From contig URSF01000001.1 in assembly GCA_900550445.1 (NCBI GenBank), positions 223 to 64,222 of the forward strand: a stretch of DNA of 64,000 bases, written 5' to 3'. The notes under the pieces were generated by a model. That model saw only the letters and a list, made by a program, of their open reading frames with translations, was not told where the DNA came from and made no database searches. The position numbers and the translations under genes were made by a program. Source of the stretch: an uncultured Rhodospirillaceae bacterium. Its GTDB lineage: Bacteria; Pseudomonadota; Alphaproteobacteria; CAAGCB01; CAG-977. How positions within the stretch are numbered: the stretch's first letter is position 1; each line of letters begins with the position of its first letter. Shown piece by piece: positions 39,970 through 45,103 of the stretch.

Positions 39970-40773
39970 TTACATGATTATTTTATTACGGCGGTGTAAC
40001 AGGCAGCACAGCAGAAATAAAAAAGCGCAGATGACTTCCATCGACGGGGCGGCGGGCGTGTCGAAATAAATTGAACAGGCCAGTCCGGCAACGACGCAAA
40101 ATAAACCGATTAAAGATCCTCCGACCGCCATTGTTTCGGGTGTTTTTGCAAAAAAACGGGCTGTCGCCGGCGGAATTATCAATAAAGCGGATACCAGCAG
40201 CAGCCCTGTTGTTTTCAAGGCCAACGCCACAAATAAAGCCGTTACGATCATAAAAACGGCGGATTGAAACGTCGTTGAAACGTTTTCGCTTTGGGCGACG
40301 TCGGGCATGACGGCGGCAAATATTTGTTTTTTCCAGTTAAAGAACAACAATACGGCGCACAGACTGCCGGTCGCGGCGATGAAAATCAAATCGCTGCCGG
40401 TGACGGATAAAACGTCGCCGAATAAATAGGCGGTCAGATCCGTTCTGATCCCCGGCAGACAGGACAAGCCGATAATTCCCAGACACAGAGCTGTCTGTCC
40501 GATAATCAGCAACAGCAGATCCATGCCGATAATAAACCTGTCCGAAACTTTCGCCAGCAGCAGAGCCGTTAAACAAACGATAACGGCGACGCCCGCATTT
40601 TGTCCGATTCCCAGACCGATTCCCAGCAAAACGCCGGCCAAAGCCGAATGTGACAGCGTATCGCTGAAATAAGCCATGCGCCGCCAGATCATCAGACAGC
40701 CGACAGGACCGGCCAGACCCGCCATTGCGGCGGCGGCGGTCAATCCGCGCAGGATAAAAGGTTCAGTCCACAT
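39970..40773 (-). CDS. znuB: zinc ABC transporter permease
   Basis: ABC-3 family permease pattern (MAYFSDTLSHSALAGV...). The ATG at 40773 is preferred, since the longer ORF runs through znuC. Confidence 0.85.
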   Translation of the reverse strand: MWTEPFILRGLTAAAAMAGLAGPVGCLMIWRRMAYFSDTLSHSALAGVLLGIGLGIGQNAGVAVIVCLTALLLAKVSDRFIIGMDLLLLIIGQTALCLGIIGLSCLPGIRTDLTAYLFGDVLSVTGSDLIFIAATGSLCAVLLFFNWKKQIFAAVMPDVAQSENVSTTFQSAVFMIVTALFVALALKTTGLLLVSALLIIPPATARFFAKTPETMAVGGSLIGLFCVVAGLACSIYFDTPAAPSMEVICAFLFLLCCLLHRRNKIIM

Positions 40774-41512
40774 GTTGAATGCTCCCGTCCGGCAGATGCA
40801 AGTGGTCATGATGATGCCGATAAACGGCCAAAGCCGGTTTTTCACCGTATAGACGGCGGTATCCCGGCAGATCGGCGATTTCATCGGGAGCGCCGGAACA
40901 GCAGATATGACGGTTGATGCACAATACCTGATGCGATCCGGCCATGACGATATGCAGATCGTGCGACACCATGACAATGGCGCACTTTTTTGTTTGGTTT
41001 AATTCGTCCAGCAAAGCATAAAACTGTTCTTCGCCGACCGGATCCAGCCCTTGCGCCGGTTCGTCCAACACCAGCAGATCGGGTTGCTTTAACAATGTTC
41101 TGGCCAGCATGACGCGCTGCATTTCCCCGCCGGACAAAGGGTGAACGCTGCGCTGCAGAATTTCCGGCGGCAGGCCGGTCTGTTTTAAAACGCCGGCCAG
41201 TTCTTTGTCGCCGTAAGGGGCGTCCAGACATAAAAAACGTTTGACTGTCAGCGGAATAGCGCGGGATAAGTTCAGTTTTTGCGGGATATAACCGATTTTG
41301 ATCCCCGGTTTTTTCCGGATACTGCCGCTGTCCGGCCGGATAATGCCCAGAATGATTTTCAGCAGCGTTGTTTTTCCTGCGCCGTTCGGGCCGATCAACG
41401 TAACGATCCGTCCCGGCAGTATTTCAAAAGAAATATTGTCCAGTACGGAAATATCATTAAAACTCAGACATACATTGTCCAGTTTGACCAGAGCTTCTTG
41501 TTGTTCGGGCAT
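40763..41512 (-). CDS. znuC: zinc ABC transporter ATP-binding protein
   Basis: Walker A GPNGAGKTT, signature LSGGEMQR, Walker B LLVLDEP, and a His-rich C-terminus (YRHHHDHLH). Confidence 0.9.
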   Translation of the reverse strand: MPEQQEALVKLDNVCLSFNDISVLDNISFEILPGRIVTLIGPNGAGKTTLLKIILGIIRPDSGSIRKKPGIKIGYIPQKLNLSRAIPLTVKRFLCLDAPYGDKELAGVLKQTGLPPEILQRSVHPLSGGEMQRVMLARTLLKQPDLLVLDEPAQGLDPVGEEQFYALLDELNQTKKCAIVMVSHDLHIVMAGSHQVLCINRHICCSGAPDEIADLPGYRRLYGEKPALAVYRHHHDHLHLPDGSIQHVD

Positions 41513-41588
41513 GGAATTATCCGGTTTTAGAACTTGTTTTTCCTGTCATAGCGTAATACACAATAAAGGAAAAGAGGATAATTTTTTT

Positions 41589-42476
41589 ATGTTTTTTAAA
41601 ACGGCTTTTGCGTTTTTTTGCTGTATTGCGTTCTTGACCGGATCCGTTTCGGCCCGGCCGGCCGTCATTGTTTCCGTCGCGCCGCTTCATTCTGCCGTCA
41701 GCGCGGTCATGCAGGGCGTCGGCGAACCGGAATTACTGTTAAATCCGGCAGTGTCCGTGCATGATTATCACTTAAAACCGTCCGACATGCAGCGTCTGTC
41801 AAAGGCCGACGTTTTGTTCTGGGGCGGTCCGGCGTTGGAATCGTTTTTGCAAAAGCCGCTGGTTTCCGCCGGCCTGTCGGATAAAAACGTTGCTTTTCTG
41901 GCCGATCCGGAAATGACGGTTTATCCGGCGCGTGCAGAAGGAAGCTTTGCCGATATCGACGGGCATTTCTGGCTGGATCCCGACAATATGGCGCGGACGG
42001 CGCGGATCGCGGCGGAAAAGTTGGCGGCTCTGGATCCCGGTCATGCGGCGCTTTATCGGGAAAATGCGGCCCGGTTTGAAAATCAGATGCGAGAATTGAA
42101 AGCGAAGGGTAAAAAGATGCTCCGCCCGTATGCCGAAACGCCGTACGTGACGTTTCATGACGCGTATCAGTATTTTGAAAAAAGTTTTGATTTAACGCCG
42201 ATCGGCGCGGTTTTTATTGATCCTCATCATGCTGCCGGAGCCGGGCGGATCAGCGGCCTGCGCGAAAAAATGAAACAGTCGGGAAAAGTATGCCTGTTTG
42301 CAGAACCGCAGTTTTCTGATAAAAGATTAAAGGTTGTCGCGGAAGATATGCCCGTCGTTTCCGGCGTGCTGGATCCGGCCGGTATCGACCTGACGCCCGG
42401 CCCGGATTTTTACGCGGATATGATGAATGCTTTGTTTGATTCGTTTGTCCGGTGCGTTTCCCGGCCGGCGGAATAA
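41589..42476 (+). CDS. znuA: zinc ABC transporter periplasmic binding protein
   Basis: Signal peptide MFFKTAFAFFCCIAFLTGSVSA, cluster-9 SBP pattern (HDYHLKPSD, HFWLDP, FHDAYQYF). Divergent from znuCB. ATG at 41589. Confidence 0.85.
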   Translation: MFFKTAFAFFCCIAFLTGSVSARPAVIVSVAPLHSAVSAVMQGVGEPELLLNPAVSVHDYHLKPSDMQRLSKADVLFWGGPALESFLQKPLVSAGLSDKNVAFLADPEMTVYPARAEGSFADIDGHFWLDPDNMARTARIAAEKLAALDPGHAALYRENAARFENQMRELKAKGKKMLRPYAETPYVTFHDAYQYFEKSFDLTPIGAVFIDPHHAAGAGRISGLREKMKQSGKVCLFAEPQFSDKRLKVVAEDMPVVSGVLDPAGIDLTPGPDFYADMMNALFDSFVRCVSRPAE

Positions 42477-42491
42477 TTGAGGGATAATCCG

Positions 42492-44003
42492 GTGAGATTT
42501 TCGATCGTTCTGTTTTTGCTTTTTTGCCTGTTGCCTGTTGATTTGTCCGCGCAGAATATGATGCCGCAGCGAATCAGGTATCCTGTCGCGGCCGGAGTTT
42601 CTTATCCTCGCGACGCCCGGGAACTGTCCAAAAAAACGGCAGAGCTGATCGAATCGGCCGACCGTCGTCTGCGTCTGCCGGCTTCGGAAATTCCGAAAGT
42701 GATTATTGTTCCGCATAACGCTTTTTATTTTTCCGGCGACGTTGCCGCGGCCGGATATGCGGCATTGCGGCGGTTGAAGCCTTTTGTTAAACGCGTCGTT
42801 TTGATCGGATCGTCGCATCAGGGAAAATATTTTGGGATTTCGCTTTCTCAAGCCAAATATTGGGAAATGCCGAACCAGCGTTTTGAAGTCGATCAGGAGT
42901 TGACGGATAAGCTGTTGAAAATTCAGGGCATCGGATTTGACAGCGACGCGCATGAAGCCGAATCGTCTTTGGAAATGCAATTGCCTTTTGTCAGCGCGGT
43001 TTTCGGCAAAGACGTTAAAATCATGCCGATTTTGGTCGAAGACGCCAGCATCGAACAGGTTTCCGACCTGATCGCGGCCGTCTGGGGCGGGCCGGAAACA
43101 GTGATTGTTATTTCGACTGACATGTCTTCGGGCAAACAGGAAGAAAAAGTCAAATCGGATATTTATGACATATCGAAACTGCTGGAAAAAGAAGAATACA
43201 CAAAAATCAAATCAAGACATTTCTGCGCGCCGCTTCTCGTTGCCGGGCTGCTGGCATATGTGCGGGAAAATCATTTTTCCGTTCAGACAATCGAGCTGCA
43301 GACGTCGGCCGATGCTTTTCCGGGGGCAGACAAAGTCGTCGGATTCGGGGCGTTCGGCGTTTATGAAACAAACGACGGGGCCGAAGACAACAAAGTGCAG
43401 ATGGAAAATATTTTGCAGGCCAACCAGGAATCTTTGCTGCGCGTCGCGGCTCAGTCGATCGTGACCGGATTTGAACGCGGCCGTCCGCTGCGTCTGCGGG
43501 AATCACGCTATCCCGAAGAGCTGCGGCAGAAAGGTGCGACGTTTGTCAATATTTACTATAACGGCGCGCTTCGCGGCAGTGCCGGGTCGGGCGAACCGAA
43601 GCGTTCTATTCTGGAAGATATCGCCGAAAACGCGTATGCGGCCGCTTTTTCGGATTTTCGTTTTATTCCTTTGAACGAAGAAGAAATCAAAAATGCGGAA
43701 ATCACTATATCCATTTTAACGCGCCCGTCGCCGGTCCGGTTTGAAAACGAAAAAGATCTGCTGGCGAAAATCAAGCCGCATCAGGACGGTTTAATTCTGC
43801 GGGAACGGTCGAATAAAGCTTTGTTTTTGCCGCAGGTATGGGAAACGTTTTCTTCGCCGGAAGAATTTCTGGCGTATTTGAAACAAAAAGCCGGATTGCC
43901 TATGGATTACTGGTCGCCGACAGTAAAAGTTTACCGTTTTGACGTGATTGACATTAACAGCGGCGATCTGGAAAATCCGGGATCCATCTGGCTACCGAAA
44001 TAG
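42492..44003 (+). CDS. MEMO1-family (AmmeMemoRadiSam protein B-like) + AMMECR1 (protein A-like) fusion, with apparent signal peptide
   Basis: The N-terminal half is YPVAAGVSYPRD...VIIVPHNAFYFSG...GSSH (MEMO pattern). The C-terminal half is GATFVNIYYNGALRGSAGS...LFLPQVWE (AMMECR1 pattern). The GTG at 42492 has SD gaggga 7 nt upstream and yields MRFSIVLFLLFCLLPVDLSA-QN. It starts 16 nt after the znuA stop. Confidence 0.8.
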   Translation: MRFSIVLFLLFCLLPVDLSAQNMMPQRIRYPVAAGVSYPRDARELSKKTAELIESADRRLRLPASEIPKVIIVPHNAFYFSGDVAAAGYAALRRLKPFVKRVVLIGSSHQGKYFGISLSQAKYWEMPNQRFEVDQELTDKLLKIQGIGFDSDAHEAESSLEMQLPFVSAVFGKDVKIMPILVEDASIEQVSDLIAAVWGGPETVIVISTDMSSGKQEEKVKSDIYDISKLLEKEEYTKIKSRHFCAPLLVAGLLAYVRENHFSVQTIELQTSADAFPGADKVVGFGAFGVYETNDGAEDNKVQMENILQANQESLLRVAAQSIVTGFERGRPLRLRESRYPEELRQKGATFVNIYYNGALRGSAGSGEPKRSILEDIAENAYAAAFSDFRFIPLNEEEIKNAEITISILTRPSPVRFENEKDLLAKIKPHQDGLILRERSNKALFLPQVWETFSSPEEFLAYLKQKAGLPMDYWSPTVKVYRFDVIDINSGDLENPGSIWLPK

Positions 44004-44012
44004 GGGAAAAAG

Positions 44013-44450
44013 ATGAAAGTTGTGTGGGTCGTTGCCGGGGCGCTGATTACGTCTGATTTCAAAGTGCTGTTGTCGCGCCGGCCGGAAGGCAAAAATCTGG
44101 CCGGTTTCTGGGAATATCCCGGCGGCAAGATCGAAACGGGCGAAACGCCGCAGGACGCTTTGTGCCGCGAATTAAAGGAAGAACTGAACATAATCGTTGT
44201 TCCTGAACATTTGGAACCGCTGACATTCGCATCGTTCGGATACGAAACGTTTCATTTGGTCATGCCTTTGTTTGTCTGCCGGTCGTGGCAGGGGATCCCC
44301 GTCGGGGCGGAAGGACAGAAAATTGATTTTGTCGATGCGGAAAACGCGGGGCTGGAACCGGATAAATATCCGATGCCGCCGGCTGACGATGACCTTTCTG
44401 ACTGCTTGAGGCTATGGGTGAAACGGCATAAAAAGAAAGAAGCGGTGTAA
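44013..44450 (+). CDS. mutT: Nudix hydrolase, MutT-like (8-oxo-dGTP diphosphatase)
   Basis: Nudix box GFWEYPGGKIETGETPQDALCRELKEELNI. Confidence 0.8.
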   Translation: MKVVWVVAGALITSDFKVLLSRRPEGKNLAGFWEYPGGKIETGETPQDALCRELKEELNIIVVPEHLEPLTFASFGYETFHLVMPLFVCRSWQGIPVGAEGQKIDFVDAENAGLEPDKYPMPPADDDLSDCLRLWVKRHKKKEAV

Positions 44451-44533: not shown

Positions 44534-45103
44534 ATGACGGAAAAACAAACTTTTAAACAGAAAATACCGAATTACCTGACATTTATGCGGATTTTGGTTA
44601 TTCCGGGCGTGGTGGCTTCCTTTTCTTTCCCCGGTATTCTGGCCGCGTGGGTGGGCTGCGGACTGTTTATTGCAGCGTCCATAACGGATTATTTTGACGG
44701 ATACCTGGCCAGAAAGTTCAAAAGCACTTCCAGTCTGGGGCGGATTTTCGATCCGATAGCCGATAAACTGCTGGTCGCCGCGACATTGTTGATGATGGCG
44801 GCTTATGACCGTTTGGGGTATACCGGATTGTGGCCGGCCGTCGTTATTTTGTGCCGCGAAGTTCTGGTTTCCGGATTGCGTGAGTTTTTGGCGGAAATCC
44901 GAATCGGACTGCCCGTAACCCGGTTGGCAAAATGGAAAACGGGTATTCAGATGGTGGCGATCCCCATGCTGATGGTGGCTGATTTTTCCCCGTGGTTCTG
45001 CTATTTCGGCGAAGTGGGTGAAGTGTTGATCTGGGTTGCCGCTTTGCTGACGGTCATTACGGGATATGACTATTTGCGCGCGGGGCTGAAACATCTGGAT
45101 TAA
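44534..45103 (+). CDS. pgsA: CDP-diacylglycerol--glycerol-3-phosphate 3-phosphatidyltransferase
   Basis: CDP-alcohol phosphatidyltransferase motif DGYLARKF...GRIFDPIADKL. Confidence 0.9.
   Translation: MTEKQTFKQKIPNYLTFMRILVIPGVVASFSFPGILAAWVGCGLFIAASITDYFDGYLARKFKSTSSLGRIFDPIADKLLVAATLLMMAAYDRLGYTGLWPAVVILCREVLVSGLREFLAEIRIGLPVTRLAKWKTGIQMVAIPMLMVADFSPWFCYFGEVGEVLIWVAALLTVITGYDYLRAGLKHLD

Follow-up and report, generated by a model that had tools for sequence, protein, structure and literature searches.

A znuA-linked Memo-AMMECR1 fusion with a predicted signal peptide and without the predicted catalytic cysteine in uncultured gut Alphaproteobacteria

A 64,000-nucleotide (nt) stretch of DNA from an uncultured Rhodospirillaceae bacterium (assembly GCA_900550445.1, contig URSF01000001.1, positions 223 to 64,222 of the forward strand), referred to here as the window, encodes a 503-amino-acid (aa) protein directly behind znuA, the gene of a periplasmic zinc-binding protein. 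The protein is a fusion of a Memo domain and an AMMECR1 domain, the B and A components of the AmmeMemoRadiSam system, whose third component is a radical S-adenosylmethionine (radical-SAM) enzyme. It belongs to a clade in which a predicted leader, loss of the AMMECR1 cysteine, erosion of the Memo site and adjacency to znuA co-occur without exception, and this combination is the new finding. In the literature searched, no description of an exported, Cys-less, znuA-locked clade and no link of AMMECR1 or Memo to Zur or znu was found, and AmmeMemoRadiSam appears there in passing mentions only.

The anatomy of the protein, its clade, the correlation of the traits, the selection on the gene and the predicted fold come from sequence and comparison. 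The favoured explanation, to which an even chance is given, is that the protein is a lineage-specific derivative of the B-A fusions that has left its ancestral job and is exported beside ZnuA. A first-pass annotation of the same DNA had described a secreted-looking fusion behind znuA with no radical-SAM partner nearby. That observation is confirmed and is stronger than first stated, while its interpretation is partly supported.

Domain architecture and homologues

The open reading frame (ORF) is intact and is separated from znuA by a 15-nt spacer. Pfam matches are Memo PF01875 at aa 31-286 (E 2e-33, 116 bits, cutoff 27) and AMMECR1 PF01871 at aa 317-485 (E 3.5e-39, 134 bits, cutoff 25), and both domains were thus recovered as first annotated. 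The NCBIfam models TIGR04336 (AmmeMemoRadiSam protein B) and TIGR04335 (AmmeMemoRadiSam protein A) score 166 bits (cutoff 26) and 176 bits (cutoff 99). The AlphaFold 2 model of the fusion has a predicted local distance difference test score (pLDDT) of 90.1 and a predicted template modelling score of 0.82. Foldseek aligns its Memo half with MEMO1 (3bcz) at E 8.5e-19 and a template modelling (TM) score of 0.75, and its AMMECR1 half with 1zq7 and 1vaj at a TM score of about 0.73, all TM scores being normalised to the target. Both profile scores exceed the curated cutoffs, and both expected folds are predicted. The G+C content of the gene (49.8%) is close to that of the window (49.7%), and its third-position G+C content is close to that of its neighbours; recent horizontal acquisition is not suggested.

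The fusion itself is widespread and already described, and it is not the unusual feature that the first-pass annotation took it for. All 120 top homologues from a search of 5.8 billion proteins, including those of Thalassospira and Magnetospirillum, are Memo-AMMECR1 fusions with lengths of about 440-550 aa, and JGI already uses the name "protein B/protein A" for some of them. AMMECR1-dioxygenase fusions and their radical-SAM neighbourhood were noted in 2007 by Balaji and Aravind (PMC2034487). Among the 120 homologues, all full-length sequences with at least 39% identity to the window protein have a hydrophobic leader and lack the Cys. Those with 38% identity or less are all leaderless and all have LRGC[IVL]G, save one with LRGCRG.

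The Cys-less clade shows the motif variants LRGSAG, SVG, SSG, GAG, SAS, SYG, AQG, AYS and NAG. In a neighbour-joining tree its sequences are monophyletic, with 46/46 under a single ancestor. A search of 1.84 billion representatives gave 12,224 homologues, and about six 50%-identity clusters fall in the clade. The carriers are metagenome-assembled genomes (MAGs) of uncultured Alphaproteobacteria that live in the human gut, in the rumen or in the gut of horses (faecal samples). Among GTDB genomes the nearest is represented by locus L008, the fusion of which is 94% identical to that of the window.

Two database entries show other domain combinations. P0049 (440 aa) joins half of the fusion to a DnaA C-terminal domain, and P0055 (417 aa) joins half of it to CTP synthase. 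Both come from contigs of 1.4-2.3 kb and are probably assembly or gene-calling chimeras, not real architectures.

Active-site residues and selection

The residue audit compares 46 non-redundant clade members with 98 non-redundant canonical sequences, that is, Cys-retaining B-A fusions. The Cys of the AMMECR1 RGChG motif has been called "absolutely conserved" and is predicted to be catalytic (PMC2034487). All 98 canonical sequences have it. In the clade the site is occupied by Ser (41 members), Gly (two), Ala (two) and Asn (one), and the lost Cys first reported for LRGSAG of the window is thereby missing in every clade member. Nearly all other canonical AMMECR1 residues are kept, namely L360, R361, G362, G365, D388, R390, D432, G433, L446, P447, W450, A467 and G468. 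The DxR-aromatic motif reads D388-F-R390-F in the window, and its D388 and R390 do not vary within the clade.

The Memo half has changed further. The window has PHNA in place of PHAG, GSSH in place of GPxH, FCA in place of ACG and TSA in place of NSG, and the PHAG, GPxH, EH, DLSH, ACG and NSG signatures are lost or eroded clade-wide. The His residues of the EH and DLSH motifs (H158 and H213 equivalents), both Ser in the window, are lost in 46/46 members. The window protein keeps H75, H109, D210 and C245. The first three align with H49, H81 and D189 of MEMO1 in the PDB alignment, and C245 is placed at the C244 position of MEMO1 by the family alignment. Most of the residues that are newly conserved in the clade are aromatic or charged, and a C-terminal tail (SGD..P.S.W) is newly conserved as well; none of these residues is His or Cys. 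Within the clade, tail residues S490, G491, D492, P496 and W500 each reach at least 93% conservation, and canonical fusions mostly have gaps at these positions.

The ratio of nonsynonymous to synonymous substitution rates (dN/dS) is 0.05-0.19 for the whole fusion gene, 0.05-0.18 for the Memo half and 0.04-0.13 for the AMMECR1 half. These values include lineages without any Memo ligand. Given the dN/dS of 0.04-0.18 for the two halves and the confident predicted fold, a pseudogene or a decaying domain is rejected. The pattern is that of a binding surface kept and, judged by its residues, an ancestral chemistry lost. The folded domains, the purifying selection and the retained AMMECR1 cleft indicate that the protein is most likely a non-catalytic binding module.

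The protein could instead still be an enzyme, with Ser363 as the nucleophile, H75, H109, D210 and C245 as a metal site, and a modified periplasmic reaction, perhaps with a radical-SAM partner elsewhere in the genome. Ser is the commonest replacement of the Cys, but some znuA-linked members under selection have Gly, Ala, Asn or Val at residue 363, which argues against a simple nucleophile swap. The window subclade (at least 60% identity) keeps four of the six tracked Memo residues, and the PDB contains MEMO1 structures with bound iron, with bound copper and with the C244S change ("metal binding site mutant"). However, znuA-linked members that are more divergent no longer have H75, H109, D210 and C245, no Memo ligand is left in members of 39-55% identity, and the H158 and H213 equivalents are lost throughout. 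Strong purifying selection on both halves and the existence of exported canonical systems elsewhere would fit an enzyme, whereas the lack of a TIGR04337 gene in the 64-kb window and in the ±7-10 kb flanks of 29 relatives' fusions does not. This alternative is considered improbable.

Predicted export

The leader of the window protein, MRFSIVLFLLFCLLPVDLSA/QN, has an n-region charge of +1, a 14-residue uncharged core and a site after A20 that complies with the -3/-1 rule. Leaders were scored by heuristic rules for the n-, h- and c-regions and were compared with secreted-looking control ORFs of the same window. The leader resembles other secreted-type N-termini nearby, such as that of orf46220, which ends in ...LLFSLPVSA/QI. 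Among 26 clade members, the n-region charge is +1 to +3 in 23 and 0 in three, while 25 have an uncharged run of 12-20 aa and 25 have a compliant cleavage site at positions 17-27. The leader sequence diverges fast, with 17-85% identity to that of the window, and its signal-peptide character is retained. In the AlphaFold 2 model the leader is a detached helix at aa 2-12, and pLDDT falls below 50 at aa 14-24, around the predicted cleavage site.

The position of the GTG start at 42492 is conserved among relatives as GTG or ATG, and inspection of the sequences finds Shine-Dalgarno-like purine-rich stretches 5' of the start in most of them. The first-pass proposal of a signal peptide read from a Shine-Dalgarno-supported GTG is therefore borne out across the clade at the level of leader character and start position. 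A TTG start at 42477 is possible and less likely than GTG 42492, given the Shine-Dalgarno spacing and the conserved GTG or ATG; either start yields the leader. The lipoprotein reading is rejected because the leader lacks a lipobox and its Cys varies among relatives (Tyr in L008). Tat (twin-arginine translocation) export of the fusion is rejected because there is no RR motif.

The first-pass annotation had named an internal start as the case in which no leader would be made. A wider form of this reading takes the hydrophobic N-terminus to be untranslated, or else to be an uncleaved anchor with the domains in the cytoplasm. The window does have an in-frame ATG (Met23, position 42558) before the Memo domain. 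This Met occurs in 11/26 relatives and is missing in 15/26, including the 94%-identical L008, and ATG 42558 is rejected as the start on that ground. The retention of signal-peptide character in leaders of 17-85% identity also opposes a cytoplasmic protein. The window and most relatives have a positive n-region and an acidic or neutral c-region after it, an arrangement that predicts translocation of the C-terminal side. The uncharged run is shorter than a typical membrane anchor. A cytoplasmic location is thus very unlikely, and predicted export of the fusion to the periplasm by the Sec (general secretory) route is considered likely.

Linkage to znuA

The gene upstream of the fusion is, by its predicted product, a true znuA. 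Among PDB entries the window ZnuA matches E. coli ZnuA 2ogw best (158 bits); its three His ligands align, and the alignment has a gap at the loop. The znuA gene lies directly 5' of the fusion in the window and in 29 relatives' loci with upstream flank (28 plus L087). The first-pass annotation had proposed a survey of relatives for this linkage, and no unlinked fusion was met in these 29/29 loci. The linkage holds down to 39% fusion identity and through local rearrangements. In 26/26 loci the junction is tight, with an overlap in 14 and a gap of 15 nt or less in 12. The overlap is 4 nt in L004, L005, L028 and L087, and L006 has a 10-nt gap.

The other neighbours vary. By tblastn, znuB is near the fusion in 28/28 relatives' loci scored, and znuC is likewise conserved. 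In L087 both genes lie about 4-5 kb off, behind three unrelated genes; the fusion of this locus is highly diverged, with a Memo half that Pfam misses and the motif IVGVSG. A zur gene is inserted in six loci. Downstream, DivIC replaces NUDIX in L004, L005 and L028. L006 and L087 have no PilT-like gene, and 10/29 loci have no pgsA. Where NUDIX is present, it starts within -4 to +11 nt of the fusion stop in 22/23 relatives.

One locus of the clade carries an unexpected organism label. L023 (CAVCSV010000002.1) was deposited as "Limosilactobacillus gorillae" and contains a whole alphaproteobacterial locus (PilT-like gene, znuB, znuC, znuA, fusion, NUDIX and pgsA), with a fusion of 55% identity. The label is probably a binning or labelling error.

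Absence of a radical-SAM gene near the fusion

The first-pass annotation saw no radical-SAM gene in the window, and this holds on a direct search. None of the window ORFs of at least 100 aa has the radical-SAM CX3CX2C motif. Stop-to-stop frames of at least 80 aa give four matches, all in short, apparently non-coding frames, and tblastn of the window with two TIGR04337 proteins gives chance matches only (E at least 0.6). In the 29 relatives' loci, no TIGR04337-like gene lies within ±7-10 kb of the fusion, the flanks that the search covered. Among canonical fusions, 40/57 have a TIGR04337-like gene within 10 kb, and none has znu genes nearby. The radical-SAM enzyme of L007 (Thalassospira), for example, scores 642 bits for TIGR04337.

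Three more Cys-less degenerate fusions occur among 146 diverse representatives. P0153 (L088, 7001-8596) has IRGAMG and a transmembrane-like N-terminus, and P0258 (L089, 7001-8413) has PRGQAG and no obvious partner gene. P0248 lies on a 1.6-kb contig without gene context. P0153 and P0258 have no radical-SAM gene nearby, which fits a link between Cys loss and partner loss. A convergent znu association was sought in both and not found, which makes the znuA pairing peculiar to the gut alphaproteobacterial clade. Taken from residue loss and gene context together, decoupling of the clade from radical-SAM chemistry is considered probable.

Operon structure and Zur

The znuA stop codon (TAA, 42474-42476) is followed by the 15-nt spacer TTGAGGGATAATCCG up to the GTG of the fusion. 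From the znuA start up to the final 60 nt of the fusion, a consensus scan gives neither a strong terminator-like site nor a promoter-like site on the + strand. The single internal hairpin is weak, and the scan counts are at or below chance. The znuC/znuA intergenic region contains a CTTGTTTTT...GCGTAATACAC element, which is conserved in L008-L018 and is a likely promoter. The NUDIX gene is probably in the same operon as the fusion.

For a Zur link, proposed for checking in the first pass, the window itself gives no sequence sign. A scan for the Zur palindrome GTAATAnTATTAC with up to two mismatches gives 0 matches in the window, and the 64 kb contain no zur gene. In the six relatives with zur in the locus (L004, L005, L019, L025, L028 and L038), a GTAATAATATTAC / AATGTAACATT-type palindrome lies a short way upstream of znuA. 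Their Zur-like gene lies upstream of znuC and scores 81 bits against the Zur model, below the cutoff. The window subclade has neither the gene nor the palindrome and has the conserved GCGTAATACAC element instead.

Cys-less paralogues of ribosomal proteins or DksA are induced under zinc limitation, and by analogy the fusion might be a Zur-regulated, zinc-independent spare for a cytoplasmic Memo-AMMECR1 enzyme. Its place in the znuA operon, the loss of His and Cys residues, and the zur gene with a Zur-box-like palindrome in some relatives agree with this. Against it, a signal peptide is predicted in all members, and the window lacks both Zur box and zur gene. The lost Cys, moreover, is a predicted catalytic residue and not a structural zinc ligand (PMC2034487). 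No MAG occurs twice in the GTDB scan and so no second canonical copy was seen, a weak argument as the scan patterns are biased toward the clade. The spare-paralogue explanation has very little probability.

Comparison with known systems

Canonical B-A fusions, such as Thalassospira indica DY252_09270 (P0059), have the same domain order and folds as the window protein and 36-39% identity to it. Both have the two profile matches above cutoff and retain the AMMECR1 pocket with its DxR-aromatic motif. In contrast, the canonical fusions are leaderless, have LRGCIG and the Memo H/H/H/D/H/C set, have TIGR04337 within a few kb, and are never near znu. The window protein has a leader, no Cys and two His fewer, lies behind znuA, and has no radical-SAM gene nearby.

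The systems of Desulfobacterales and other Thermodesulfobacteriota (e.g., L040) resemble the window in having a B-A fusion with a signal-peptide-like leader. They differ in that all catalytic residues are kept, identity to the window protein is 28-31%, and no znu gene is nearby. Intact fusions with a leader are found in many Desulfobacterales-type loci (L039-L065, L081 and L083) and in a few from other phyla. In the Desulfobacterales-type loci a polytopic aminopropyltransferase-like membrane protein of about 700 aa comes after the fusion, and a TIGR04337 enzyme comes next. In L040 (9974-14731) the membrane protein has 702 aa, and the TIGR04337 enzyme (341 bits) has the twin-arginine signal MKKLSRRQFICSAALILSKPALSMA within its first 64 residues. 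The motif [SNTD]RRxF[ILV] precedes the radical-SAM domain in 21 such loci and does not occur in the enzymes beside leaderless fusions. The intact system in these loci thus appears, from its leaders, to be exported. A Tat-targeted radical-SAM enzyme would be unusual, and no description of one was found in the literature searched.

These leaders suggest that the scaffold is able to work at the membrane or beyond the cytoplasm. The gut clade is closer to the leaderless proteobacterial fusions than to those of Desulfobacterales, and its leader was therefore probably gained independently.

Human MEMO1 (PDB 3BCZ; 7KQ8, iron-bound; 7L5C, copper-bound) has the same fold as the Memo half of the window protein at about 19% identity. 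It is cytosolic and single-domain, and the equivalent of its H192 is Ser in the window. Residues of the MEMO1-type metal site are not conserved across the znuA-linked clade. Archaeal and eukaryotic AMMECR1 proteins (PDB 1VAJ, 1ZQ7 and 1WSC) have the same fold as the other half at 28-34% identity. RG...G and the DxR-aromatic motif are kept in the window, whereas the Cys of RGChG is Ser there and never Cys in the clade.

Periplasmic zinc chaperones are encoded beside the binding proteins of zinc ATP-binding cassette (ABC) transporters, such as AztD next to AztC and ZinT with ZnuA. The fusion occupies an analogous operon position, being a predicted secreted protein encoded directly after a zinc-binding-protein gene. 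Unlike these chaperones, it matches only Memo and AMMECR1 in Pfam and NCBIfam and has no homology to them, and it has no conserved His-rich or Cys-containing metal site.

Proposed role

The fusion would be transcribed with znuA from the divergent znuC/znuA promoter and translated from GTG 42492 right after znuA. A Sec-type signal peptide (aa 1-20, LSA/QN) would take it to the periplasm, the compartment of ZnuA. The ancestral radical-SAM-coupled chemistry would have been abandoned, as the AMMECR1 Cys and two invariant Memo His are gone and no TIGR04337 gene is near. The folded domains and the retained AMMECR1 cleft (R361, G362, D388-x-R390, D432-G433, L446-P447, W450) would then form a non-catalytic ligand- or protein-binding module. 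Its invariant pairing with znuA suggests that it may aid zinc acquisition by ZnuABC, for example if it docks on ZnuA, or if it captures or hands over zinc or a chelate of zinc.

The case for a zinc role arises because znuA is the sole invariant neighbour, and an accessory role in zinc uptake is proposed tentatively from this gene linkage. Its specific form, a periplasmic ZnuABC accessory pseudoenzyme of gut Alphaproteobacteria that captures zinc or zinc chelate or docks on ZnuA, is possible and rather unlikely. The metal-linked periplasmic role of the first-pass annotation stays a hypothesis.

Several observations weigh against the proposed role. The residue audit finds no His or Cys conserved across the clade and no new clade-specific His/Cys metal site, and the Memo ligands disappear in divergent members, as described above. 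The idea that a ZnuA without a His-rich loop needs a helper is not uniform, since the loop carries 1-5 additional His in 7/29 of the partner ZnuAs, although most have no His-rich loop. The window has neither zur nor a Zur palindrome. The cytoplasmic NUDIX protein is encoded as tightly behind the fusion as the fusion is behind znuA, so the operon is functionally mixed. Part of the linkage is owed to inherited synteny, because all clade members appear to come from one uncultured lineage of Alphaproteobacteria of the gut and rumen. The export call rests on heuristic sequence features. Finally, the Desulfobacterales-type fusions have a leader and keep all catalytic residues and a radical-SAM neighbour, and a leader alone is therefore no sign of a lost ancestral function.

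The main rival takes the protein to be exported and to have an envelope role unrelated to zinc, such as binding or processing of a lipid, isoprenoid or cell-wall molecule. The position behind znuA would then reflect an inherited operon and shared expression in a compact genome. The operon runs on, with equally tight spacing, into NUDIX and into pgsA, a gene of phospholipid synthesis, and both the single lineage and the absence of a clade-wide metal-ligand pattern suit this rival. The exported canonical systems adjoin a polytopic aminopropyltransferase-like membrane protein, and the Cys-less fusion P0153 adjoins MurD-like and MurL genes. Memo gene contexts are reportedly tied to isoprenoid modification. 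What the rival explains less well is that NUDIX, pgsA, the PilT-like gene and znuCB are each lost or displaced somewhere, while the pair of znuA and fusion stays adjacent in each rearranged locus (L004, L005, L028, L087 and L006). The envelope role is regarded as an unlikely, if serious, competitor.

Features of the locus

The features of the window around the fusion are collected in Table 1. The longest ORF for znuA, from TTG 41298 (392 aa; added part 41298-41588, + strand), is an artefact, as it extends back over the intergenic region and the start of znuC. The true start codon of znuA is ATG 41589, with AAAGGAAAAGAGGA before it and the signal peptide after it.

Table 1. Coordinates of the fusion gene, its parts and its neighbours in the window
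Feature	Position	Strand	Remarks
PilT/T2SSE-like orphan ATPase, 321 aa	38941-39906	-	Directly after znuB
znuB, ABC-3 permease	39970-40800	-	Pfam ABC-3, E 3e-55; exact start uncertain
znuC, ABC ATPase	40763-41512	-	Pfam ABC_tran, E 3e-29; divergent from znuA
znuC/znuA divergent intergenic region, 76 bp	41513-41588	.	Conserved CTTGTTTTT...GCGTAATACAC element
znuA, periplasmic zinc-binding protein	41589-42476	+	Pfam ZnuA, E 7e-55; own signal peptide MFFKTAFAFFCCIAFLTGSVSA; without His-rich loop
Shine-Dalgarno GAGGGA	42480-42485	+	6 nt 5' of the GTG start
Memo-AMMECR1 (B-A) fusion coding sequence	42492-44003	+	503 aa, GTG start, TAG stop
Predicted Sec signal peptide, aa 1-20	42492-42551	+	Cleavage LSA/QN; heuristic n/h/c features
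Memo domain, aa 29-288	42576-43355	+	Active-site signatures eroded
AMMECR1 domain, aa 314-486	43431-43949	+	Pocket residues retained, catalytic Cys excepted
LRGSAG, aa 360-365	43569-43586	+	Canonical LRGCIG; Ser363 in place of Cys
Conserved C-terminal tail D-I-N-S-G-D-L-E-N-P-x-S-I-W	43950-44000	+	Clade-specific
NUDIX (MutT-like), cytoplasmic	44013-44450	+	Pfam NUDIX/NUDIX_4; starts 9 nt after the fusion stop
pgsA-like CDP-alcohol phosphatidyltransferase	44534-45103	+	Pfam CDP-OH_P_transf, E 1e-36; downstream neighbour in most relatives

The PilT/T2SSE-like ATPase is an orphan that is kept after znuB in 26/29 related loci. It is much more conserved than its neighbours, with 77-100% identity against 30-84% for ZnuA and 39-94% for the fusion.

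Biological significance

The Memo and AMMECR1 families are ancient and, through MEMO1 and AMMECR1, linked to disease. The clade described here is a natural experiment, in which a scaffold remains under strong selection after the loss of the putative catalytic residues, with predicted export and locking to znuA. The AMMECR1 cleft is the surface that stays conserved once catalysis is removed. This offers a testable handle, namely whether the scaffold binds zinc, a chelate or ZnuA. The Sec and Tat leaders on both enzymes of the intact sulfate-reducer-type systems bear on the location of their substrate. A zinc-locus gene of common uncultured gut and rumen Alphaproteobacteria is also mislabelled by current annotation as a component of a radical-SAM system. 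If true, the reading of the protein as a ZnuABC accessory would connect the enigmatic Memo and AMMECR1 families with metal handling, and would do so in a bacterial system that is tractable.

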